Source: Candidatus Microgenomatus sp. (GTDB lineage: Bacteria; Patescibacteriota; Microgenomatia; UBA8517). Taken from it: a DNA stretch of 64,000 nucleotides. The stretch covers positions 559,027 to 623,026 of the forward strand of contig DYGS01000001.1 of the NCBI GenBank assembly GCA_020724585.1, given 5' to 3'. The notes under the pieces were generated by a model. The model made no database searches, was not told where the DNA came from, and saw nothing but the letters and a program-made list of their open reading frames with translations. A program made the position numbers and the translations under genes. Below are positions 49,096 through 59,831 of the stretch, piece after piece (position 1 is the first letter of the stretch; each line of letters opens with the position of its first letter).

Positions 49096-49308
49096 TTGGC
49101 ATATTCAAAAGCTATGTTTATAGTCACCAAGAAAAAGGGAGAATCAGAGGATGCACTTTTGGCCCGCTTTCGAAAGAAAGTGGTATTATCGGGTCTTCTT
49201 CCCGAACTTCGGGAAAGGGAAAGATTTAAAAAACCATCCCAAAAACGAAAAGAGAAAAAATACAGAATTGAATTTCAGAAATATCTTGAAAAGAAAAGAA
49301 ATTATTAA
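49096..49308 (+). CDS. rpsU: 30S ribosomal protein S21
   Basis: ESEDALLARFRKKVVLSGLLPELRERERFKKPSQKRKEKK vs S21 [40 protein letters not shown]. Confidence 0.65.
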   Translation: MAYSKAMFIVTKKKGESEDALLARFRKKVVLSGLLPELRERERFKKPSQKRKEKKYRIEFQKYLEKKRNY

Positions 49309-49493
49309 TGAATAAGATTGTTGGTTTTTTAAAAGAAGTCAAATTAGAGCTTGAAAAAGTCTCTTGGCCAAAACGCGAAGAAGTGATAAACTACCTTGTT
49401 TTGGTCGTAATTATAAGCGTCATCGTCTCGGGATTTGTAGGTTTGGTAGATTTCAGTCTAACCAAATCACTTGAAAAATTGCTTATTAAATAA
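49308..49493 (+). CDS. secE: preprotein translocase subunit SecE
   Basis: 61 aa, ELEKVSWPKREEV then single TM; position directly upstream of nusG. Confidence 0.75.
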   Translation: MNKIVGFLKEVKLELEKVSWPKREEVINYLVLVVIISVIVSGFVGLVDFSLTKSLEKLLIK

Positions 49494-50104
49494 TGAATAA
49501 TACCGATATCCAAATTTCAGAAAAAGGAACGGGGAACAAAAAAATCCCCGGACATATGGTTTTATCTAAAACCGATGATCCAAGAGCCAAATGGTATGTA
49601 GTCCATACAGCCTCAGGTCATGAAGTAAGGGTTATGGAGACTCTCCGCCAAAGAGTTGAAACAATGAATTTGGGTAATTATGTTTTTGAAATGCTCGTCC
49701 CGACTCAGGATAAGATTGTAATAAGAAGCGGCAAGAAAGCTCAAGTTAAAGAGAAAATTTTCCCTGGTTATTTGATGGTCAAAATGATTTTGGATGATTC
49801 TACATGGTTATCTGTCAGGACAACTCCGGGAATTACTGGTTTTGTAGGCACTGGAAATAAACCAACTCCGCTTTCAGAAACAGAAGTTGTCAATATCCAA
49901 AAATTTATAAGCTCCCCTGCTCCAAGATTTAAAACTAAGTTTTCCGTTGGAGAAGCAGTCAAAATTACAGACGGGCCATTCAGTGATTTTTTGGGATCAA
50001 TCCATGAATTGGATGAAGAGAAAGGGAAAGTAAAAGTCTTGGTTTCAATCTTTGGGAGAGAAACTCCAGTTGAATTGGACTTTTTGCAAATCCAAAAAAT
50101 TTAA
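49493..50104 (+). CDS. nusG: transcription termination/antitermination factor NusG
   Basis: NGN domain KWYVVHTASGHE; KOW motif GEAVKITDGPFSDFLGSI. Confidence 0.9.
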   Translation: MNNTDIQISEKGTGNKKIPGHMVLSKTDDPRAKWYVVHTASGHEVRVMETLRQRVETMNLGNYVFEMLVPTQDKIVIRSGKKAQVKEKIFPGYLMVKMILDDSTWLSVRTTPGITGFVGTGNKPTPLSETEVVNIQKFISSPAPRFKTKFSVGEAVKITDGPFSDFLGSIHELDEEKGKVKVLVSIFGRETPVELDFLQIQKI

Positions 50105-50118
50105 GATAACAATTTTAA

Positions 50119-50322
50119 TCAATCACCTTTATTTTCTTTCTCTGAGTTGGATAACAAGCTATTAATTACTTTTTCTTCACCATCAACAGTTAAAGAAAAG
50201 CCCTCATTTGTATGTCCCAATTGAACCCTTTTTCCTTCCGAATCTGTTTCTTCTCTTACTACCATTATCACTTTTTTTACCGGCTTTTCATTATCTTCTG
50301 CCATATTGAATAGATTATACAA
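50119..50322 (-). CDS. hypothetical small acidic protein
   Basis: 67-aa ORF, opposite strand within the r-protein cluster; uncertain. Confidence 0.25.
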   Translation of the reverse strand: MYNLFNMAEDNEKPVKKVIMVVREETDSEGKRVQLGHTNEGFSLTVDGEEKVINSLLSNSEKENKGD

Positions 50323-50434
50323 TAATGCTACAATAATGCTACCTCGAAGTTCTGTTTGAGGGAGACTAAACAGGTCGAAACTTCTAATTTGTTTCTTCTT
50401 GTTTGTCTTCTAAGTACTATGTACTAAAATATAT

Positions 50435-50857
50435 ATGGCAAAAAAAGTAAAAACAATCGTAAAAATTAATTTGAAAGGCGGAGAAGCAACTCCCGCGCCT
50501 CCTGTTGGAACCGCTCTTGGACAGCACGGCATTGCCCTGATGGATTTTGTTAAAGCCTACAACGATAAAACAAAGGACATGAGGGGGGAAGTTGTCCCTG
50601 CAGTTATTACAATTTATGAAGACAGAAGCTTTGATTTTATAATTAAAAAGGCTCCAGTTGCCGACATGATTAAGAAAAAATTAGGACTTGAGAAAGGATC
50701 AGGCACAGCGGGACGCGGTGTTCATGCAGTTTTGACGAAAACGCTGGCTAATGAAATTGCCAAAGATAAAATGGATGATTTTAATACTAAAGATTTAGAT
50801 GCGGCAGTAAAAATTGTTGAAGGCACAGCAAGATCAATGGGTATAAAGATAGAATAA
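50435..50857 (+). CDS. rplK: 50S ribosomal protein L11
   Basis: PAPPVGTALGQHGI, full-length L11 pattern. Confidence 0.9.
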   Translation: MAKKVKTIVKINLKGGEATPAPPVGTALGQHGIALMDFVKAYNDKTKDMRGEVVPAVITIYEDRSFDFIIKKAPVADMIKKKLGLEKGSGTAGRGVHAVLTKTLANEIAKDKMDDFNTKDLDAAVKIVEGTARSMGIKIE

Positions 50858-50913
50858 AGCTATATGCTCTAAGCTATGTGGCAAACAACATAAAACATAA
50901 AGCAAACTAAAAC

Positions 50914-51645
50914 ATGGGAAAAATTAGAACAAAAATAATAGAAGGTTTGGGTGAGGAAGATAAAAAGTCTTCGGCGGAAGAATATGCCCAAAAAAAGGCT
51001 AAAAAATTAAGCAATTTAGAAAAAACTGCCGAGGAGAAAACTGATAAACCCAAAACTGTAAAACAAAGAGGCAAAAAATATTTGTCCTCGAAAGCAAAAG
51101 TAAATTCAGGAAATTTATACAAACTAGAAGAAGCTGTTTCATTGATTAAAGAATTTAGTAGTGCCAAATTTGATGAAACTATGGAACTACATCTTGTAGT
51201 TAGAAAGAGCGGTTATTCAGTAAATGTTACACTTCCCCATCAATTTGGCAAGCAAAAGAAAGTAGAAATAGCAAATAATGAAACTTTAAAAAAACTTGAA
51301 ATGGGCAAAATTGATTTTGATGTGCTTTTGGCAACACCTGAAATGATGCCAAAATTAGCTCCCCATGCAAGATTTTTAGGTCCCAAAGGCCTAATGCCAA
51401 ATCCTAAAAATGGAACAATTATAAAAACAGAAAAAGATGCCGCCAAATTTAACAGCAATAGCTTAAATCTAAAAACTGAGAAAGGCGCACCTTTAATTCA
51501 CACAAGTTTTGGTAAACTATCACAGGATACAAAAGAACTTGTAACAAATGCTACAGCCATAATTGATGCAATTGGTGGATCAAAACAAATAATAAAAGCC
51601 TTCATGAAGTCAACCATGTCCCCAAGTATTAAAGTCCAAATTTAA
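50914..51645 (+). CDS. rplA: 50S ribosomal protein L1 (with ~45-aa Lys/Glu-rich N-terminal extension, or a later non-ATG start)
   Basis: KYLSSKAKVNSGNLYKLEEAVSLIKE..FDETMELHLVV matches the L1 N-terminal region; conserved core throughout. Confidence 0.85.
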   Translation: MGKIRTKIIEGLGEEDKKSSAEEYAQKKAKKLSNLEKTAEEKTDKPKTVKQRGKKYLSSKAKVNSGNLYKLEEAVSLIKEFSSAKFDETMELHLVVRKSGYSVNVTLPHQFGKQKKVEIANNETLKKLEMGKIDFDVLLATPEMMPKLAPHARFLGPKGLMPNPKNGTIIKTEKDAAKFNSNSLNLKTEKGAPLIHTSFGKLSQDTKELVTNATAIIDAIGGSKQIIKAFMKSTMSPSIKVQI

Positions 51646-51651
51646 AATTAT

Positions 51652-51903
51652 CTAACCATTTTTAGTAACCATTTGTCCAGGTCTTTCGTGGTTATTTTTT
51701 CCACCTTTTAAATGAGTATTGTTATGTCTTTTTAAAACGTCCATCAATTTTCTAGAAGGTTTTCCAGAAATAACTTTATATATCTCATCATTATCTTTAT
51801 CACTAATTGGTTTAAGACGAATTATAGTAACAGGCCTTCCGTCCTCTCTAGACACATCAGTACCCTCGATACTAACTAGGTGACTTTTGAATTCAGGTAT
51901 CAT
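51652..51903 (-). CDS. hypothetical protein
   Basis: 83-aa ORF in the rplA-rplJ spacer, opposite strand. Confidence 0.25.
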   Translation of the reverse strand: MIPEFKSHLVSIEGTDVSREDGRPVTIIRLKPISDKDNDEIYKVISGKPSRKLMDVLKRHNNTHLKGGKNNHERPGQMVTKNG

Positions 51904-52019
51904 AATCGATATTATTCATCACTTCGAAGCAATTATCTTGAGTTTTTCTTGAAGACTATTTAAATATATTACCTTTAAAACAAACTCTAAAAACTTGTTT
52001 TGATAACTATCAAGTATTG

Positions 52020-52226
52020 TTAATTTCCCCATATTAAAAACTTCAAATAATTTCGGGATTCTGGATCAATTCTAGGACTTAAGTCAGACCAATACTTAAT
52101 TACTTCTTTTTTATTTAACTTTTCACCATCAAGACCATAATTTATTAGTTGAGTAATTCTCCAAAGTTTATACTTCTTAGGGTTTGATTTCTTCATCTTT
52201 TTTTCATCAACTGTCCAGTTAATCAT
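52020..52226 (-). CDS. hypothetical protein
   Basis: 68-aa ORF, Trp-containing, opposite strand. Confidence 0.25.
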   Translation of the reverse strand: MINWTVDEKKMKKSNPKKYKLWRITQLINYGLDGEKLNKKEVIKYWSDLSPRIDPESRNYLKFLIWGN

Positions 52227-52305
52227 ATTCTATTATACCATGAAGTCTAGTCCCCAGGCACAAAGATTGGGCCTTGATTTTTAGGCGTAATAGACTTACA
52301 TTGTA

Positions 52306-52536
52306 TTGTATCGTATGAGTGATATTCCACCAAATCCAGACTTAACATCCAAAGAGAAAATATTTTGGAAAAAAGCAAGGCAAAAGATACAATTTTTTGA
52401 TAAAAACCGCACACAACCGTTGCGTACTGTTAGAACTACTTCTGGCCCTTACGGAATACTTGATGACCTAAGGAGAGAAGAAAAAACAACTCCGGTTGTT
52501 CCGCCTCCACCAACTGACAACCAAAACAACGCTTGA
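52306..52536 (+). CDS. hypothetical Pro-rich protein
   Basis: 76-aa ORF in the rplJ leader region; may be spurious. Confidence 0.2.
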   Translation: MYRMSDIPPNPDLTSKEKIFWKKARQKIQFFDKNRTQPLRTVRTTSGPYGILDDLRREEKTTPVVPPPPTDNQNNA

Positions 52537-52585
52537 TATATAAATCAAGACAGGTTAAAATAACATGTCCGTAGAAATTGTGTAT

Positions 52586-52617
52586 ACGCGTAAGCAGAGC
52601 TTGGCACCGCTTCGCGT
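52586..52617 (+). promoter_or_regulatory. palindromic leader element upstream of rplJ (ACGCG-TAAGCAGAGCTTGGCACCGCTT-CGCGT); candidate L10(L12)4 autoregulatory site
   Basis: Lies 20 nt upstream of the rplJ start. Shares the 16-mer GTAAGCAGAGCTTGGC with the tandem hairpins at 40028-40109. Confidence 0.3.
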
Positions 52618-52637
52618 TGTAAATCACACCGAGGAAT

Positions 52638-53171
52638 ATGAATACTGTATCAGACAAAAAACAAAAGAAAATTGAGTTGGTTGAAAAACTTTCTCCAACC
52701 TTAAAAAAAGCAACAGGAGTTGTATTGGTTAATTATACAGGTTTATCCGTAGCTCTCCAGCAAGACTTAAAAGCAAAACTCAAAGAAGTTAATAGCGATA
52801 TTGTTGTTGTTAAAAATACATTGATTAAAAGAGCGATGGATTCAGCAAACCTTAAAAATGAAGCCATTAATGAAGATGTACTTTCAGGACAAACTGCACT
52901 TGTTGTCTCAAATGGTGACAGTATTAGTGCAATTCAAGTATTAGGAAAATTTGCAAAAGATAATAATATTCCACAATTTAAAGTAGGCTTTGTTGATGGT
53001 AATTTTTATCAAAAAGAAGGATTAACCAAAATATCAACATTACCAAGTAAAGAAACATTATATGCTCAAGTTGTAGGTAGTCTCATGTCCCCTATGTATG
53101 GATTAGTCGGAACTCTAAATGGAAATTTACAAAAGTTGGTATATATTTTGGATCAAAAATCCAAATCATAA
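52638..53171 (+). CDS. rplJ: 50S ribosomal protein L10
   Basis: SD GAGGAA upstream; L10 pattern KKQKKIELVEKL...GVVLVNYTGLSVA. Confidence 0.9.
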   Translation: MNTVSDKKQKKIELVEKLSPTLKKATGVVLVNYTGLSVALQQDLKAKLKEVNSDIVVVKNTLIKRAMDSANLKNEAINEDVLSGQTALVVSNGDSISAIQVLGKFAKDNNIPQFKVGFVDGNFYQKEGLTKISTLPSKETLYAQVVGSLMSPMYGLVGTLNGNLQKLVYILDQKSKS

Positions 53172-53193
53172 TTTGAAATGGGGTGATTAATTT

Positions 53194-53583
53194 ATGACAG
53201 ACAAAGTTGAAAAATTAGTAGAAGAAATATCAAAACTTACAGTTCTAGATCTATCTGAACTTGTTAGCGAACTTCAAGAAAAACTTGGAGTATCTGCAAT
53301 GCCCGTAGCCGCAGCCCCGTCGACAGGCTCAGGGCAAGCAGCAGCTGAAGCACCAGCAGCAGAAGGAGAAGGGGGTGGAACCGTAGTAATGACAGCATCA
53401 GGCGACAATAAAATTGCAGTTATTAAAGCCTTAAGAGAAATTAATCAAAGCTTGGGGCTACAAGAAGCAAAAGCAGCGACTGAAAACTTACCATTTACAG
53501 TAATTGAAAACGGTAAATCAGAAGATGCTAAAGCCGCAGCAGATAAACTGAAAGCAGCTGGCGCTACGGTCGAATTAAAATAA
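53194..53583 (+). CDS. rplL: 50S ribosomal protein L7/L12
   Basis: N-terminal dimerisation helix, Ala/Pro hinge, C-terminal domain IAVIKALREI...EAKAATENLP. Confidence 0.9.
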   Translation: MTDKVEKLVEEISKLTVLDLSELVSELQEKLGVSAMPVAAAPSTGSGQAAAEAPAAEGEGGGTVVMTASGDNKIAVIKALREINQSLGLQEAKAATENLPFTVIENGKSEDAKAAADKLKAAGATVELK

Positions 53584-53603: not shown

Positions 53604-53632
53604 ATCACAGGGTTGCACCCTGTGATTTTTTG
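53604..53632 (+). terminator. rho-independent terminator after rplL (ATCACAGGG-ttgca-CCCTGTGAT + TTTTT); also overlaps the stop of the convergent GNAT gene
   Basis: Perfect 9-bp stem, 5-nt loop, T5 tail. Confidence 0.7.
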
Positions 53633-54108
53633 TGGAGTTCCATTAAATAGGCATTGTAGTAATTTTCCCCTACCTTAAATTCTTTTTTCATCTCGCCTAC
53701 AATTTCAAAGCCACAAGATTTATATAGATTAATTGCATTTGTTTGACTTGTGTTTACAATTAATTTTAATTTAACAACTTTTGGATTTGAAAAGGCTTCT
53801 TCAATCCTTTTTTCAAACAACATTCTGCCCAACCCCTGACCTCTGTACTCTTTTTTAACATATATTCCGCTTAAACGGGCAATATGAGAAAATTTTTTTG
53901 CCTTAGCATATTTGATAGAGCCAATTCCAACAAGTTCACCACCCATATATGCTCCATACCAAACTTGATATCTTTTGTTCAATTTTTCTTTTTTTAATTC
54001 ATTTAATGAGGTTCCAAAAGCCTGAGGTTCATTTTGCAGTGCCTCTAATCTAATCTTTTTAAATTCGTCTAAATTGTTAAGATTTAGTTTTTGTAAATTT
54101 TTCTGCAT
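53605..54108 (-). CDS. GNAT-family N-acetyltransferase
   Basis: Acetyl-CoA binding motif A RGQGLGRMLFEKRIEEA; 167 aa; 32-nt overlap with the upstream ATP-grasp gene. Confidence 0.75.
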   Translation of the reverse strand: MQKNLQKLNLNNLDEFKKIRLEALQNEPQAFGTSLNELKKEKLNKRYQVWYGAYMGGELVGIGSIKYAKAKKFSHIARLSGIYVKKEYRGQGLGRMLFEKRIEEAFSNPKVVKLKLIVNTSQTNAINLYKSCGFEIVGEMKKEFKVGENYYNAYLMELHKKSQGATL

Positions 54109-56422
54109 TTATTTTTATCTCTTCATTAATATTAATGATTTCTAAGTTAGTAATACCTTCTGGTAAATAGCTTTGATATTTCTTGGCATCTTCTACATTT
54201 TTTGTATACACAAAAAGTGTATCTATATTTTCATCTCTCATTTTACTTCCAAAGAATAAAATATCATTTTTAATATTTTCATCTTTTTTAATATAAGTTG
54301 ATAGCCAATATGATTTATTGGCTATTTTTGGAGTAAAACCTAGTTTTGATTTATATAGAATTAAACCACTACTTAAATCAGTTCCGTAAAAATTAGTATC
54401 TTGTCCAAATGAAATTTCCTCATAATTTTTACTTAATGCATATTCTATAAATTTATAATCCATCAAAAGCATATTTTCACCCCATGCATATCCAATTCCT
54501 AAAATTTTATTTGTCTCAAAAAACAATTCTCCACCGACCAATTTTCCATCTTGGTATGTAAATACCCCACTAATTTTCTTACCTTTTTTATTTTTTGCTT
54601 CTAACCAACTTAAGGTAATTTTAGATTCAGTTTTAAACTTATTTTTTAAGTAATTTTTATATCCTTCAAACCATTCGCTATATAAATTACTATCTATTTC
54701 CTTAATAATCTTTACATCTAGTCCTAGTTTTAAATCATGTTTAATATGATCCCTTGTTTTGCTGGATTTAATATGTTCCAGTGCACTTTTACTTTTATCT
54801 AATTTCTTTCGCCATGCAATTTTATATGGCCTTCTTATTCCTTGTCCTTGATCTATATAAGTATTAACCAGATCTGCTGTTTCCAAATCTATTGACTTTT
54901 TGGCATTTTTAATTCTTTTAACATATAAATTATTTAACCCTCCTTCCTTTTTAAGCCCCATCTCAATTTCAACAAGTCCCAGCATTTTATAAACAAACTC
55001 TATAGCTTTAGCATTTTGTGGTAAAACATTTCCATTTTTATCTACCATCTGACCTCTTAGGATAAACCTGAGCATTCGCTCATGTGGATCATAAACATTT
55101 CCAGATCTTTTATTTACATCCTCCGTTATTAAAAATTCACCATTCTGCTCCAGATGCCAACTTGCATAACCTTCTCGTAAAAATTCTAGCTTGTCATCAG
55201 CTAGCTTATACACACCCGCTTTAATAACTTTTGTATCAACTGAAGAACTATTTACATTGTTGTACATTACAAGTTGACTAGCGTTATACTTTTGTTTGTA
55301 TGTTTTATCTATCTCTTCAAAATTAATTTCATACGGAATATCTAAATGTTCCAAATTATGAAAAACTTGAAATGGTATAGTACCTTTTTCCATTTGCAAC
55401 ATAAGTATTAATGGAAATGCGTCTGTTTCTCTTGGATTACATTCAACTGGCCAAACCTCACCGTCTTTATCAACAATTAAATCAATTCCAAAAATACCTT
55501 TGTAGCCTTGACTATAAATATAATCACCAAACTTTTTAGCAATATGATCTGCCTGTTTTTGGCTTTTTTCACTAAATTCATTAACTACCCAATCATGACC
55601 TGAATAAACACCACTTCTATTATTAAGTTTTGCGTTAACTTCAGGCACATCAACAAGTTGTGTTTGGATAGAACCAACAAAAGTGCCATATTTAGTTGCA
55701 CAGCAAGGAACACTTGAGGAAATACCAGTTATAAAAGGTGCCACATTTACGGATCTAATTTCTTTTTCTGTATCTTTTAGTTTATCAAATAATTCAAGTG
55801 TTCTTGTTTCATATTTTTTATAATCTTCTTCATTTTCAATAAAAAATGTTCCTGTTCCACCACCCCAAGTTGCTTCCGCAATTTGTAAAACTATCTTTTC
55901 TACATTATATTTTTGTTTATACTCCTCAATTATTTTGTAATTTAAATCTTTAATTTCGTAATTTTCCCCTGGTATAGTTTTAACTCCTAATTCACGGAGA
56001 AGTTCTTTAAAATATTTTTTGTTCTCATATTTATCTCTAACATTTCTTTTATTTCCTACAAAATCCCAACCATTTTTTTCTAAGGTTTCCTCAAACTTTC
56101 CCATTGATTTGTAAACAACAAATTTGAAAGGTTCTTTAATTTCACTTAAAAACTTTTTGGCTAAATCTGTTGAGATAATATTTCCTGGCGTAATCGGAGA
56201 AATTTGAACATATTTATCAATTTGCTTTTGTGAATAGACACTAAAACCATCTTGCCTTATATACTCATTGTCTTGGCAATCATTAGCAACTAAATTTTTA
56301 AACTTTGGAAAATAAAAATCATTAATTATTCTCGGCCAAGCAGAAGGCCCCAATCCCACCAGAAGTGGAGCTTTACTAATTGCATTTTCAATTGATTTGG
56401 GAAGTTTTGCAATTTTAAACAT
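54077..56422 (-). CDS. fusion protein: N-terminal ATP-grasp amide ligase domain + C-terminal FemAB/GNAT-like (aminoacyl-transfer) domain
   Basis: ATP-grasp C-terminal signature GIFGIDLIVDKDGEVWPVECNPRETD. C-terminal ~300 aa with Fem-like pattern (GVFTYQDGKLVGGELFFETNKILGIGYAWGEN...KSKLGF). Confidence 0.55.
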   Translation of the reverse strand: MFKIAKLPKSIENAISKAPLLVGLGPSAWPRIINDFYFPKFKNLVANDCQDNEYIRQDGFSVYSQKQIDKYVQISPITPGNIISTDLAKKFLSEIKEPFKFVVYKSMGKFEETLEKNGWDFVGNKRNVRDKYENKKYFKELLRELGVKTIPGENYEIKDLNYKIIEEYKQKYNVEKIVLQIAEATWGGGTGTFFIENEEDYKKYETRTLELFDKLKDTEKEIRSVNVAPFITGISSSVPCCATKYGTFVGSIQTQLVDVPEVNAKLNNRSGVYSGHDWVVNEFSEKSQKQADHIAKKFGDYIYSQGYKGIFGIDLIVDKDGEVWPVECNPRETDAFPLILMLQMEKGTIPFQVFHNLEHLDIPYEINFEEIDKTYKQKYNASQLVMYNNVNSSSVDTKVIKAGVYKLADDKLEFLREGYASWHLEQNGEFLITEDVNKRSGNVYDPHERMLRFILRGQMVDKNGNVLPQNAKAIEFVYKMLGLVEIEMGLKKEGGLNNLYVKRIKNAKKSIDLETADLVNTYIDQGQGIRRPYKIAWRKKLDKSKSALEHIKSSKTRDHIKHDLKLGLDVKIIKEIDSNLYSEWFEGYKNYLKNKFKTESKITLSWLEAKNKKGKKISGVFTYQDGKLVGGELFFETNKILGIGYAWGENMLLMDYKFIEYALSKNYEEISFGQDTNFYGTDLSSGLILYKSKLGFTPKIANKSYWLSTYIKKDENIKNDILFFGSKMRDENIDTLFVYTKNVEDAKKYQSYLPEGITNLEIININEEIKINAEKFTKTKS

Positions 56423-56425
56423 AAT

Positions 56426-57763
56426 CTATGCCCATTTAACTTTAACTAATTTATCTTTTTCAATTTCAGGGCTAACTAAAAAACCCTGCAGATCAGTTCT
56501 TCCTATCAATATACTGTAACGAAGTAATTTTCTATCTGCAACCGTAACTTTTGTTTGCATCTTTTTACCAGCAAGTTTTAAAATTACCTCCAAAACGGGT
56601 CTTTCTTCCTCTCCAAGCGATGATAATTTTTTTCTTGTTGTAATTATCTTATTTTTCTTTAATAGACCAAGTTTTTTAGCTACCCCTACATCGATAGCAG
56701 ATGACCATGCACCGGTATCAATCTTCGCTAAAAACTTTTTCCACTTTCCAAATTGATCCTTAATAAATACATCTTCAACTGCCTTTACTACTGGAGTCTC
56801 CTCTCTAAATTTAACCCTATCGGAAAATTTACCGGCAAAAAGAGCTTTAGAAATTTTTATCCCGTGAGAAACATTTATAACTGCCAAATCATCTATCCTC
56901 TCAAGCCTTTTTTTTAATCCTTCATTATTAGCAAGTTGGATAGATAGACCGGGCTGGGCATTTAACTCAATTACCATGGGGCCTTTTTCAGGATGAAGCA
57001 CAATATCAATACCTGCATATCCTAAACCTGATGCCATTTGAGCCTTGACAGCCGTTTCCAAAATCAAATTCCATTGAGGTATTTTTATGCCGTTTAATTT
57101 GCGCAAAGTTCCAGGTTTGAACACAATTTGTCTGTTGTGTTGGATAGCATTTGTGGTTATTCCATAAGCCAAATCAATCCCCAACCCCAATGCTCCCTGA
57201 TGAAGATTGGCCCTTCCCCCTGATTCTTTAGTTGGAAGCCTAAGCATTGCCATTACAGGAATTTTATTAAAGACAATTATTCTAATATCCGGTGTTCCCC
57301 TGTATGCATATTTCCTAAAAACTTTATGTCTGCCTACATATTCTTGGATAAAAGCAACATCAGGTTCATTTCCTATTGAATAAGCCCCCTCTAAGATATC
57401 CAAACAATGCAATTTCAAATCCTCTGCATTAATTTTAATTTTTGAAGATGTCATCCAATTTATCATTTGTAATTTATCATTTGTAATTTTAAGTCGTTTC
57501 TTAACGACGATGATTCCTTCTCCGCCCAAACCTCTTGAAGGTTTGACTGCAAATGAACTGGGCAAACTCTCCCAATTAAAATTATCAACATCGGAATATT
57601 TTTTGAATTTTGCTAAAACTTTTGGATGTGCAATTTTATTTTTCTTCAAAACTTTATATGTCTGTAATTTAGAATTGGCGATCTTTTTTGCCTCACGAGA
57701 GTTATACTTTGCTGTATAAAGCGTATTTCTGGCATTTAAACCCAAAATTGAAGAAATTTTCAT
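56426..57763 (-). CDS. fusion protein: RimK-related alpha-L-glutamate-ligase-like ATP-grasp + C-terminal retropepsin-like aspartyl peptidase (DUF785-like)
   Basis: N-terminal ILGLNARNTLY typical of RimK-related ligases. ATP-grasp core. C-terminal D-T-G-A aspartyl protease motif KIDTGAWSSAIDVG. Carries in-frame repeat LKITNDKLQMINW. Confidence 0.6.
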   Translation of the reverse strand: MKISSILGLNARNTLYTAKYNSREAKKIANSKLQTYKVLKKNKIAHPKVLAKFKKYSDVDNFNWESLPSSFAVKPSRGLGGEGIIVVKKRLKITNDKLQMINWMTSSKIKINAEDLKLHCLDILEGAYSIGNEPDVAFIQEYVGRHKVFRKYAYRGTPDIRIIVFNKIPVMAMLRLPTKESGGRANLHQGALGLGIDLAYGITTNAIQHNRQIVFKPGTLRKLNGIKIPQWNLILETAVKAQMASGLGYAGIDIVLHPEKGPMVIELNAQPGLSIQLANNEGLKKRLERIDDLAVINVSHGIKISKALFAGKFSDRVKFREETPVVKAVEDVFIKDQFGKWKKFLAKIDTGAWSSAIDVGVAKKLGLLKKNKIITTRKKLSSLGEEERPVLEVILKLAGKKMQTKVTVADRKLLRYSILIGRTDLQGFLVSPEIEKDKLVKVKWA

Positions 57764-57769
57764 GTAACT

Positions 57770-58387
57770 TTAACTTTTAATAAACTTGCGAAACCTTAAG
57801 TATTCAGTAAATCTTAAGCCAACAAACCTACCCAAAATTATATTTATCAAAAATACTCCTGCTAGAGAAACTTCAGGATTTAATAAAACAAATTCCTGCA
57901 GAGGTTTATAGGTTAATACGGCGTATGACACAAGTGCCAAAATTAAAGTTTGAAATGTTAAGTTTATAGCCGTTTTAATCGATTTGCCAATTTGAATTCT
58001 AGTAAAATCCTCTGTCAGTAAAATTAATATAAAAACAGGAAAAATTGAGACATTTTGAGGATATATAAATAGTACGCCCAAAATTGAAATTGACACAAAC
58101 CATAGAATGATTGCCATTTTAGGGAGGTATTGAAGTTTAAGTTTAAGTTTTCTGGAAATTACACGAACAGTAGTTGAAACCAAGGCAATTAAAATAAAAA
58201 GTAAAATTCCAAGAATTGGGCCTATCGCCAAAAAGGACATGGCAAGGGCCGCAGGCAAAAAAATTCCAAAACCCCGAATGCCTACGATTTGCCTGACGGC
58301 GGCTATAACTGTTGCAATAACAGGAAGAAGCAAAAGCATTATTATCGAATTTTGGGAAACGCCGGCGCCAATAAGCAAATCTGTCAT
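57770..58387 (-). CDS. polytopic (6-7 TM) membrane protein, the '7TM' partner of the RimK-like/retropepsin system
   Basis: 205 aa, almost entirely hydrophobic helices; 7 nt upstream of the ATP-grasp/peptidase gene. Confidence 0.55.
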   Translation of the reverse strand: MTDLLIGAGVSQNSIIMLLLLPVIATVIAAVRQIVGIRGFGIFLPAALAMSFLAIGPILGILLFILIALVSTTVRVISRKLKLKLQYLPKMAIILWFVSISILGVLFIYPQNVSIFPVFILILLTEDFTRIQIGKSIKTAINLTFQTLILALVSYAVLTYKPLQEFVLLNPEVSLAGVFLINIILGRFVGLRFTEYLRFRKFIKS

Positions 58388-58413: not shown

Positions 58414-59214
58414 TCAGACATATTTAATACTAGATTTTAAAAGATTATAAAAATTGTCACAAAACTGCCTTACAAACACTTGATCAGCAAAAAAGTTGCT
58501 TAAATCAAAATACAAATCGTCAGGTTTTACTTTCTTTGCCTTAGCTAAAATATTCTTTACCAATTCTCTTGTAATTAATTTACCATCAAGGCCTAACTTT
58601 ATACCATCGTTAACCATCCAATAAACATCAAACGCATCCCTACCTTTGAAATTTACCTTTTGAATATTGCCGCGTTTATATATACGATTTAAATAAGCGT
58701 CAACTTTATTTACAAATAGCGTATTCAAATCATAACATCTTGCAAAAAAAGTAAATCCATTAGAAGTGAAGGGTTTAATGACTGTTTTGCCTTTGTCACT
58801 TTGAGCAAAGTCAATTTTTAAATACAAGACCTCTGATTCGTTTGGCCCTGCAAAACCTATTTCCCTTAATATTGGAAATTTGATCAAAACTGTTTTATGA
58901 CTAAATTTTAAGCTAAATTTATCAAATTTGAGTTTTTTAATAAAATAATCTGACAAATCTTTTTGGAACTTTTCAAAATTAAAATCTGATTCTTCAAAGT
59001 TAAAATCCAAATCTTCAGAAATTCTTGGCAAATCATAAAATTTACGGAGACAAGTTTCGCCTGTAAATATTAAATCTTTATATTTTGATGTATAAATAAA
59101 ATTTAAAACATAAACTTGCAATCTTTCTTTCAAAAGGTTTCTTCTAAATTCAGGGTTGGGATTGTTTTTATTATCCTCAACCACCTTTTTTAGCTCATCA
59201 ATTATTATTGCCAT
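58414..59214 (-). CDS. abiEii: AbiEii-family nucleotidyltransferase toxin (type IV TA / abortive infection)
   Basis: IFTGETCLRKFYDLPRISEDLDFNFE matches the AbiEii motif (GGTAL..hyg..R.SeDlDF). Confidence 0.7.
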   Translation of the reverse strand: MAIIIDELKKVVEDNKNNPNPEFRRNLLKERLQVYVLNFIYTSKYKDLIFTGETCLRKFYDLPRISEDLDFNFEESDFNFEKFQKDLSDYFIKKLKFDKFSLKFSHKTVLIKFPILREIGFAGPNESEVLYLKIDFAQSDKGKTVIKPFTSNGFTFFARCYDLNTLFVNKVDAYLNRIYKRGNIQKVNFKGRDAFDVYWMVNDGIKLGLDGKLITRELVKNILAKAKKVKPDDLYFDLSNFFADQVFVRQFCDNFYNLLKSSIKYV

Positions 59215-59831
59215 TTTAGTATCTTAACTACCCTTCTCATTTTAACAGAATTGCTTAAATCAACATATTTTTTAAACTCATCGATATCATCGTTTGTAAA
59301 ATCATTTAAATTAAGTCTTAATCCTTCTGTTAATTCATACTCGAGACTAGAATTTCCAAAACTTCTTAAATAAATTGTATCAAAAAGTGCTTTTGCCTTT
59401 GTTGCTAGTCTTACAGGGTTGTTTTTATAATCAAACTCTTTGTAACCTAAAAATAAACTCTGTTTTATGTTTTGATATCTAAAATTTCCCAACTTATTAA
59501 TAAAAAGCCTTGATGATTTAGTAGTTATTGAGGTTGTAACATAAACGCCCTCGGGTATTATGCCGTATATGCTAAGCATGTATTCAAGTGAAATATATGA
59601 AGGATATCTCAAAACATTTGCAATAAATTGAATATATTTTTCGTAAATTCCTGCAGTTTCTTCAATTCTAGCTAAATATAAGCGAGATACAAATAATCCC
59701 TTTTTTAAGGCAATAATTTCTCCACTCTTTAGCCTTGTTTTAATCCAGTAATCAAGATTTGAACCAGATTTGCCCAAGGCCGTACCCAAAGTAACCTTGT
59801 TAAAATATGGTAACCTATCAATATATTCCAT
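59205..59831 (-). CDS. abiEi: AbiEi-family antitoxin / transcriptional regulator
   Basis: 208-aa ORF overlapping the AbiEii gene by 10 nt; N-terminal winged-helix-like region; size and position fit AbiEi. Confidence 0.6.
   Translation of the reverse strand: MEYIDRLPYFNKVTLGTALGKSGSNLDYWIKTRLKSGEIIALKKGLFVSRLYLARIEETAGIYEKYIQFIANVLRYPSYISLEYMLSIYGIIPEGVYVTTSITTKSSRLFINKLGNFRYQNIKQSLFLGYKEFDYKNNPVRLATKAKALFDTIYLRSFGNSSLEYELTEGLRLNLNDFTNDDIDEFKKYVDLSNSVKMRRVVKILKWQ

Follow-up and report, generated by a model that had tools for sequence, protein, structure and literature searches.

A streamlined Rlo-like core of ligase, retropepsin and 7TM protein with a lineage-variable cassette in Patescibacteria

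INTRODUCTION

This paper concerns an operon of four genes in a 64,000-nucleotide (nt) stretch of the genome of Candidatus Microgenomatus sp., a member of the Patescibacteria (assembly GCA_020724585.1, contig DYGS01000001.1, positions 559,027 to 623,026; hereafter the window). The operon encodes a seven-transmembrane (7TM) protein, a fusion of an ATP-grasp ligase with a retropepsin-like aspartic peptidase, a larger protein joining a second ATP-grasp domain to a Fem-like domain, and a GNAT acetyltransferase. Systems combining an ATP-grasp enzyme, a 7TM protein whose transglutaminase domain is inactive and a 'Zn_protease' were reportedly predicted from comparative genomics by Iyer et al. in 2009 (Mol Biosyst), and the families PF14397 and PF14402 presumably stem from that work. 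The first-pass annotation of the window knew of no experimental characterization of triads of this kind; in fact rloABC of Pseudomonas aeruginosa, a ligase/7TM/retropepsin triad, has been characterized (Lormand et al., mBio 2025; PMC12239564), and RimB/RimK and their natural hybrid RimBK have been studied biochemically (PMC11957791).

The RloA peptidases are secreted retropepsins that cut runs of at least eight glutamates; residues K46, D48, R114 and R137 bind or cleave poly-glutamate (poly-Glu), and function is lost when R114 or R137 is changed to alanine (PMC12239564). Hypo-osmotic stress kills a triple rloA mutant, which is also impaired in biofilm formation, in cell shape and in its tolerance of antibiotics; the phenotypes of rlo mutants involve hypo-osmotic lysis and sensitivity to ampicillin as well as cell shape (PMC12239564). 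Because deletion of either rloB, encoding an inactive transglutaminase-7TM protein, or rloC, encoding the ATP-grasp enzyme, suppresses the defects of the triple rloA mutant, its lethality among them (PMC12239564), the ligase, the 7TM protein and the peptidase can be placed in one pathway. The rlo orthologues of V. cholerae respond to the VxrAB cell-wall stress system, and 96% of RloB hits fall in Proteobacteria (PMC12239564). In the second described system, RimB trims poly-Glu from ribosomal protein S6 (RpsF) and stimulates poly-α-Glu synthesis by RimK about 4-fold; the natural RimB-RimK hybrid, found mainly in Flavobacteriales and Rhodobacterales, is proteolytically active and carries its peptidase at the N-terminus (Little et al., JBC 2025; PMC11957791). 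In the literature we found no description of a Patescibacteria variant of these systems, of an ATP-grasp–Fem fusion, or of a bacterial pairing of an ATP-grasp enzyme with a MATCAP peptidase.

We report here that the operon, from an uncultured bacterium of Woesebacteria type, is a lineage-specific, streamlined Patescibacteria (Woesebacteria/Microgenomates) form of an Rlo-like core, followed by lineage-variable cassettes and built from the same parts as the Rlo and Rim systems. Like RloABC, it joins a cytoplasmic ATP-grasp ligase resembling RloC and TIGR02291, a PF14402 7TM protein and a K-x-D-T-G-A retropepsin in one operon; like RimBK, it has a cytoplasmic ATP-grasp ligase and a retropepsin in one polypeptide, so the fusion has a precedent.

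RESULTS

A check of open reading frames (ORFs) in the window placed four minus-strand ORFs, all in the same orientation, at exactly the coordinates given by the first-pass annotation (Table 1). The 7TM gene and the fusion gene are separated by 6 nt, and the fusion gene and the gene for the 781-amino-acid (aa) protein by 3 nt, while the latter overlaps the GNAT gene by 32 nt; given this packing, there is no space in the operon for a precursor ORF. Since each gene has numerous homologues, at 33–80% identity, we concluded that these are real genes and not chance ORFs. The domain architecture proposed earlier for the four proteins was borne out by Pfam and NCBIfam searches together with structure prediction, and the motifs quoted for them (GIDLIVDKDGEVWPVECNPR, LNARNTLY and D-T-G-A) were all found in the expected proteins.

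The ligase domain of the 445-aa fusion matched PF14397 (ATPgrasp_ST) with an E-value of 1.6e-64, and its best match was to TIGR02291 (alpha-L-glutamate ligase-like; 1e-78, aa 3–292); LNARNTLY stands at its N-terminus. Its TIGR02291 score of 264.5 bits is under the cutoff of 314.2, unlike that of a canonical ligase from an rlo operon on a Legionella plasmid, which scored 436 bits; the two ligases were nonetheless 39% identical over 98% of the length of the window domain. That operon also encodes an RloA-like peptidase and an RloB-like protein, and comparison with it bears out the family assignments. The RimK family model TIGR00768 gave 57 bits against a cutoff of 143.4 and matched short local stretches only. 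Among 22 homologues the glycine-rich loop KPSRGLGGEG and residues D253, E266 and N268 were invariant. The ligase appears to be of the RloC/ATPgrasp_ST type and is not RimK proper, and, unlike in RimBK, where the peptidase is N-terminal, the peptidase follows it at the C-terminus; RimBK moreover has no 7TM partner. These differences in ligase family and domain order set the system of the window outside RimBK.

The peptidase domain matched PF05618 (1e-7) and, weakly, the RloA2, RloA3 and RimB models (for RimB, NF052261, E = 0.0036). Its D-T-G-A motif occupies aa 349–352 of the fusion. In the same 22 homologues D349, G351, A352, R388, R411 and G421-R422-x-D424 were invariant and K347 nearly so, and T350 was present in at least 90%, with serine in its place in L003 (L001 to L094 are our labels for the related loci used in comparison). 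A profile of the domain found the solved RloA-type chains 9g59 (2.4e-6), 9g58 and 2pma, whose K-x-D-T-G-A and ERPV...(T/S)DR motifs align with the peptidase domain of the window. Like RloA, the domain has two conserved arginines, and R388 and R411 lie 23 residues apart, as do R114 and R137. Because the arrangement of RloA residues that bind poly-Glu recurs here in K347, D349, R388 and R411, a poly-Glu-type substrate is the one we would expect for this peptidase. The domain is basic, with 28 lysines and arginines against 16 aspartates and glutamates. The fusion protein had neither a signal peptide nor a transmembrane (TM) segment and, lacking a signal peptide, the peptidase is predicted to be cytoplasmic; it is attached to the C-terminus of the ligase, unlike the separate and secreted peptidases of RloABC.

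The fusion is far more widespread than the 781-aa architecture. Among the homologues listed for it, the best 120 showed 64–78% identity, and all of these were complete or almost complete. The peptide LKITNDKLQMINW, described earlier as an in-frame repeat within the ligase, is present once, at aa 91–103; a six-frame substring search, together with a comparison of each of the two large proteins with itself, found a single copy, and we rejected the peptide repeat. What is repeated is a 14-nt DNA sequence, ATTACAAATGATAA, which occurs twice in tandem at about 57455–57490 on the minus strand. This duplication keeps the reading frame open and sits in a surface loop of the ligase, the length of which varies among homologues.

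The 205-aa 7TM protein matched PF14402 (7TM_transglut, 2e-20) and covered only positions 311–507 of the 508-position RloB model NF052267, that is, its C-terminal 7TM part; it was 27% identical to the 7TM half (aa 309–506 of 508) of a canonical RloB-type protein, that of the Legionella plasmid operon, and aligned with no other part of it. The inactive transglutaminase domain of RloB-type proteins is absent from it, and there is no room upstream in the locus for a longer ORF. It has seven hydrophobic segments and is rich in lysine and arginine in the loops at aa 71–84 and 124–139 and in the tail at aa 194–205, which predicts a topology with the N-terminus outside and the C-terminus inside. Most of its orthologues, as judged from a comparison of the window with L001 and L004–L007, are about 290–310 aa long and have a signal peptide and an ectodomain. 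The short form has no signal peptide, no linker rich in proline, serine and threonine, and no conserved ectodomain of about 45 aa (RVDITQK...VWP.NP.KYAI). We considered whether the short ORF might be a pseudogene or a truncation and ruled this out because the nearest relatives of the window have the same form, which is common to the window, L008, L010, L011, L013, L014 and L049. By its sequence, the protein is an RloB-like short form without the inactive transglutaminase domain. With neither this domain nor a separate secreted peptidase, the system lies outside RloABC proper.

To compare the locus across genomes, we located homologues of the window proteins, and of partners seen elsewhere, in the best 80 of at least 579 confirmed matches in a collection with one genome per species, all 80 of them from Patescibacteria; the denominators given below are the loci in which a feature could be assessed. 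The retropepsin was fused to the ligase in 80/80 loci, so that the fusion proposed for the window is present there but is not particular to it. The 7TM gene lay directly upstream on the same strand in 76/76, and in all 64 assessable species-level loci the operon was convergent on rplL-rplJ downstream, at a mean distance of 4.3 kb from the start of the fusion gene. The 7TM gene, the fusion gene and the 781-aa gene also occur together in other genomes, as had been anticipated, and their order is kept down to 33% identity. The 7TM gene and the fusion gene are thus a conserved core at a fixed site in the core genome, and not, as the first-pass annotation had it, part of an accessory region. The ribosomal genes on which the operon converges form the cluster secE-nusG-rplK-rplA-rplJ-rplL, in the window as in L001 and L004–L087. 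In the window the stop codons of the GNAT gene and of rplL are 21 nt apart, with no terminator-like structure above chance. Many public records of metagenome-assembled genomes titled 'uncultured Gammaproteobacteria' carry the locus (L009, L011, L017, L024 and others); their proteins are 55–75% identical to those of Woesebacteria and their gene order is that of Patescibacteria, so these labels look wrong.

The genes that follow the fusion gene form a variable cassette. At least one further RimK-like ligase (TIGR00768 family, sub-cutoff) was present in 56/64 loci, an S-adenosylmethionine (SAM) methyltransferase in 18/64, a gene of the 781-aa type in 7/64, a class-I glutamine amidotransferase (GATase) in 4/64 and a GNAT in 2/64; the version in the window is therefore among the rarer ones. 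RloABC differs in having no such cassettes of extra ligase, GNAT or methyltransferase after its core. The GNAT and 781-aa genes, which had been described as members of the operon, are both facultative: a GNAT follows the 781-aa gene in L001, L008, L009 and L010, and one is also found in L005. The class-I GATase is carried by L003, L024, L060, L066 and L075; we considered it as a gamma-glutamyl hydrolase of the C26 type, found that NCBIfam supported only a generic class-I glutamine amidotransferase, and did not use it as evidence for glutamate chemistry.

The peptidase paired with the ligase is exchangeable: where the loci described so far have a retropepsin, more distant ones have a MATCAP/QEGLA (DUF1704) metallopeptidase. 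L092 (3644–6004) and L093 (1114–3474) have an ATPgrasp_ST–MATCAP fusion followed by a Fem-like gene, and L094 (894–3141) has a 7TM gene, an ATPgrasp_ST gene, a MATCAP gene, two more ATP-grasp genes and two Fem-like genes in that order. Such an exchange fits a conserved logic of a ligase paired with a trimming peptidase. The Fem-like enzyme is accordingly a recurrent accessory of ATPgrasp_ST systems.

Some of these features could reflect the tagging of a protein, in which the RloC-type ligase and, in sister genomes, the RimK paralogues would add C-terminal Glu tails and the retropepsin would remove them, with the 7TM protein as regulator or target; we consider this unlikely, if less so than the other alternatives below. 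The MATCAP family has a known role on tubulin. The partners of this type at distant loci are from a family whose name refers to a C-terminal carboxypeptidase, the extra ligases of the cassettes are of the RimK family, and the locus always converges on rplL-rplJ; RimK and RimB themselves act in this way on RpsF (PMC11957791). However, all 80 loci come from one class, so that synteny alone may account for the conserved position, and genes that converge are not transcribed together. A ribosome-modifying system would not need a 7TM gene, yet one is always present. Moreover, in the window L7/L12 ends in ...VELK and L10 in ...KSKS, neither of them Glu-Glu, and we found no target.

The 781-aa protein consists of an N-terminal three-domain ATP-grasp of the biotin-carboxylase/PurK/PurT type and a C-terminal tandem-GNAT domain of the Fem/MprF type. 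Sequence searches detected the former only at aa 110–430, with matches to PRK06524 (NCBIfam; 4e-38, far under cutoff) and PF02655 (3.8e-6, 27.5 bits against a cutoff of 23.2); GIDLIVDKDGEVWPVECNPR lies at aa 312–331. A full-length AlphaFold model built with 33 homologues had a mean predicted local distance difference test (pLDDT) score of 91.6 and a predicted template modeling (pTM) score of 0.86, and the best Foldseek matches of its N-terminal half were biotin carboxylases, PurK and PurT (E about 1e-13, 12–14% identity). The GGGxGT loop and D314...E327-C-N329-P-R331 were invariant in the 33 homologues.

The C-terminal half was resolved only by Pfam scans of individual orthologues and by structure prediction. 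Nothing usable for it came from Pfam and NCBIfam, or from phmmer and hmmsearch against the PDB, whether the query was the protein or a profile of 22 sequences, and the FemAB family PF02388 did not match the 781-aa protein. Of 22 orthologues, 13 matched FemAB_like (PF04339) weakly (best 3.4e-5) and seven matched Acetyltransf_6 (PF13480); we treated these matches as sub-gathering, since with related stand-alone proteins the two families gave scores of 23.1 (cutoff 27) and 20.9 (cutoff 22). Structure prediction, however, supported a Fem-type domain with a high-confidence model (pLDDT 91.8), the best structural matches of which were FemX, Sbb17 and MprF. It shares the tandem-GNAT fold of the Fem/MurM/MprF/ATE1 and Sbb17/Sba18 enzymes and is closest to FemX/FemA/MprF; unlike the Fem/MprF-type transferases, it is fused to a biotin-carboxylase-like ATP-grasp. 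The fusion of ATP-grasp and Fem-like domains proposed in the first-pass annotation therefore holds at the level of fold as modeled, while the copy in the window has no Pfam Fem match; a dependence of this enzyme on tRNA may be supposed. The window copy lacks eight residues (consensus E..L.GGL) between aa ~651/652, at about 54460–54480 of the window, in a loop that joins a strand and a helix of a GNAT lobe and is kept in 32/32 other homologues. As the identical protein occurs in independent samples, we regard this deletion as real and not as an assembly error.

About 57 relatives have the full-length architecture, at 33–80% identity, all in Patescibacteria (Woesebacteria/Microgenomates), and shorter relatives with the ATP-grasp part alone were also found. 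In L091 the 7TM and fusion genes are followed by separate genes for a 486-aa ATP-grasp and a 286-aa Fem-like protein, and in L060 the 781-aa protein is likewise split into two adjacent genes; because the halves are found as neighbors in this way, we concluded that they work together as a functional module. A word-indexed search with the Fem-like profile gave five fragments only, and an exhaustive search was needed; it yielded 525 cluster representatives, mostly stand-alone proteins of 250–310 aa. The ATP-grasp–Fem module is a rare cassette for which we found no published description, whereas the system as a whole is not categorically new. Positions 54001–56000, within the region of the 781-aa gene, have the lowest G+C content in the window (0.289, compared with about 0.35 overall), and this fits an exchange of the post-fusion cassette between lineages.

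The folds of the 781-aa protein raise the possibility that it modifies peptidoglycan or a lipid-linked precursor by assembling a cross-bridge or side chain on lipid II or another membrane-bound acceptor of that kind. A D- or acidic amino acid would then be attached by the ATP-grasp half and an L-amino acid, donated by aminoacyl-tRNA, by the Fem half, while the 7TM protein held the machinery at the membrane. Cross-bridges of the Gram-positive type are known to be built by two classes of enzyme, ATP-grasp ligases and Fem ligases (PMC2922099), and here they are fused; the best folds are those of the lipid II-directed FemX and FemA and the lipid-directed MprF; and the rlo phenotypes recounted above, with the VxrAB response in V. 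cholerae, speak for it as well (PMC12239564). We nevertheless think precursor modification unlikely. A module present in 7/64 loci cannot explain the conserved core, PF02388 gave no match, the operon has no mur or fem genes beside it, and the conserved arginines of the retropepsin suggest poly-acidic peptides and not stem peptides.

The 167-aa GNAT matched PF00583 (Acetyltransf_1; 2.2e-16, 60.6 bits against a cutoff of 20.7) and resembled RimI (TIGR01575, 2e-15, under cutoff). Together with the other enzymes of the cassettes, it invites comparison with pathways for small peptides, in which the product would be a short capped peptide, an osmolyte or an antibiotic-like compound exported by the 7TM protein; N-acetylglutaminylglutamine amide (NAGGN) is the osmolyte that serves for comparison. 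ATP-grasps, GNATs, class-I GATases and SAM methyltransferases (18/64 here) are typical of such pathways, Fem-like enzymes of the Sbb17/Sba18 type act in antibiotic biosynthesis, and Rlo has been connected with osmotic tolerance (PMC12239564). This reading of the locus is improbable in our judgment, because an endopeptidase with poly-Glu-binding residues would be needless for a di- or tripeptide, RloA requiring at least eight glutamates (PMC12239564), and because no meaningful match to the NAGGN synthetase model TIGR03103 was found among the proteins scanned.

Directly upstream of the 7TM gene, 26 nt away and on the same strand, lies a pair of genes whose products matched the PADLOC models for AbiEi (4e-41) and AbiEii (3e-23). 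From this neighbor the first-pass annotation had suggested a defense-related function. An operon acting with AbiEi/AbiEii in defense or abortive infection would account for the adjacency, which recurs in L006, L007, L013 and L015 (with an orthologous pair of 56–58% identity at the same site in L006), and the best promoter-like site found in the window is upstream of AbiEi, though the scan as a whole was not above chance. The pair is nevertheless not a consistent associate: it lay upstream in 2/59 loci and is absent from L008, the closest relative of the operon. In L013 its proteins are 77% and 86% identical to those of the window, compared with 67–69% for the flanking operon proteins, which indicates that the pair moves independently of the operon, and it is found with Fem-containing and with RimK/methyltransferase cassettes alike. 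None of the four operon proteins matched a PADLOC model, and the operon itself keeps its fixed core-genome position beside ribosomal protein genes. On the PADLOC result and the neighborhood census we rejected a role in defense, which we regard as very improbable indeed; the AbiE pair instead looks like an independently mobile toxin-antitoxin/Abi module, and its recurrence suggests a preferred insertion site.

Scans of the window for promoter-like sites (37, compared with 34.3 expected from shuffling) and terminator-like sites (4, compared with 3.3) were not above chance, and for this reason we have drawn no boundaries of transcription units.

Two features near the operon were noted in passing. 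The rplA-rplJ spacer of the window has three small ORFs, two of them opposite in strand to the ribosomal genes, and the same spacer in related genomes also has small ORFs, with no Pfam match. Farther off, a 210-aa ORF has an N-terminal hydrophobic segment, a cysteine-rich block (CGGTCGSNFNCQPNFFC...CRNPICAQDTDCIC), a linker rich in proline, serine and threonine, and a C-terminal TM anchor, and looks like a small surface protein.

Table 1. Coordinates in the window of the operon genes, the domains of their products and nearby features
Feature	Position	Strand	Families
AbiEi	59205-59831	minus	
AbiEii	58414-59214	minus	
7TM protein, 205 aa	57770-58387	minus	
Ligase + retropepsin fusion, 445 aa	56426-57763	minus	
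RloC-type ATP-grasp ligase domain, aa 1-300 of fusion	56864..57763	minus	PF14397, TIGR02291
Retropepsin-like aspartic peptidase domain, aa 319-445 of fusion	56426..56809 (including stop codon)	minus	PF05618
ATP-grasp + Fem-like protein, 781 aa	54077-56422	minus	
N-terminal half, aa 1-440, three-domain ATP-grasp of biotin-carboxylase/PurK/PurT type	55103..56422	minus	
C-terminal half, aa 441-781, Fem/MprF-type tandem-GNAT domain	54077..55102 (including stop codon)	minus	
GNAT, 167 aa	53605-54108	minus	
secE-nusG-rplK-rplA-rplJ-rplL cluster	49096-53583		
Small ORF in rplA-rplJ spacer, 76 aa	52306-52536	plus	
Small ORF in rplA-rplJ spacer, 68 aa	52020-52226	minus	
Small ORF in rplA-rplJ spacer, 83 aa	51652-51903	minus	
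ORF, 210 aa	48403-49035		

DISCUSSION

The general reading with which the work began, in which a non-ribosomal peptide ligase and a peptidase go together with a 7TM protein, is supported by these results. We consider it about an even bet that the operon encodes a membrane-associated module in which an acidic, Glu-rich peptide is made, trimmed, and lengthened or capped by accessory enzymes, and that this module serves envelope or osmotic homeostasis. In such a module the RloC-type ligase would polymerize or append an acidic peptide, most likely of α-linked glutamate, at the inner face of the membrane with the use of ATP; the fused retropepsin, active as a dimer, would trim the chain and set its length, and may stimulate the ligase as RimB does RimK; and the 7TM protein would serve as a dock for the enzyme, by way of its basic loops on the cytoplasmic side, and would anchor, display or export the product. 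The 781-aa protein, with its biotin-carboxylase-like ATP-grasp and its Fem-type transferase, probably dependent on aminoacyl-tRNA, could add two further residues or groups, after which a free amine could be acetylated, and so capped, by the small GNAT. The Glu substrate, the role of the 7TM protein, the dependence on tRNA and the physiological role are what we infer here. The defects of rlo mutants and the constant place of the locus in the core genome lead us to favor a role in the envelope or in osmotic homeostasis. The variable cassette, the swappable peptidase and the repeated recruitment of Fem-like enzymes together suggest that the pathway lengthens, trims and caps a peptide.

Several observations weigh against this proposal. 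The window ligase falls short of the TIGR02291 cutoff, and R388 and R411 were equated with R114 and R137 of RloA by motif alignment and spacing. The peptidase is cytoplasmic here and secreted in RloA, so that the division of labor may differ from that in Rlo. The analogy of the 7TM protein with RloB is only partial, since the transglutaminase domain and, in the clade of the window, the ectodomain are missing. The N-terminal ATP-grasp of the 781-aa protein is as much carboxylase- or PurT-like as peptide-ligase-like, and the Fem-related Pfam matches of its orthologues are below the gathering cutoffs, with none for the window copy and its 8-aa loop deletion. A further difference from RloABC lies in the host, a monoderm-like Patescibacterium.

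A bolder version of the acidic-peptide proposal would make the locus a new class of envelope modification, a hybrid module in which one polypeptide forms amide bonds in two ways, ATP-dependent (by way of an acyl-phosphate) and aminoacyl-tRNA-dependent, and which helps to build a defined, N-capped acidic peptide on or through the Patescibacteria envelope. The 781-aa protein and its split relatives would then act on the product of the Rlo-type ligase and peptidase at the 7TM platform, and the lineage-specific cassettes (RimK paralogues, methyltransferase, GATase and Fem-like enzymes) would specify peptide 'serotypes'. We offer this tentatively and think it unlikely to be correct.

In Pseudomonas, RloABC has lately been connected with biofilm formation and with the tolerance of antibiotics and of osmotic stress. 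Its Patescibacteria counterpart is simpler and maybe easier to study: a single soluble polypeptide holds both ligase and peptidase, the 7TM partner is reduced to a bare core, and the site is fixed in at least 80 species-level genomes. The locus therefore offers a tractable route to the product of Rlo-type systems. A near-universal envelope or osmotic system, if that is what this locus encodes, in an uncultured, host-dependent lineage would bear on how such cells live.

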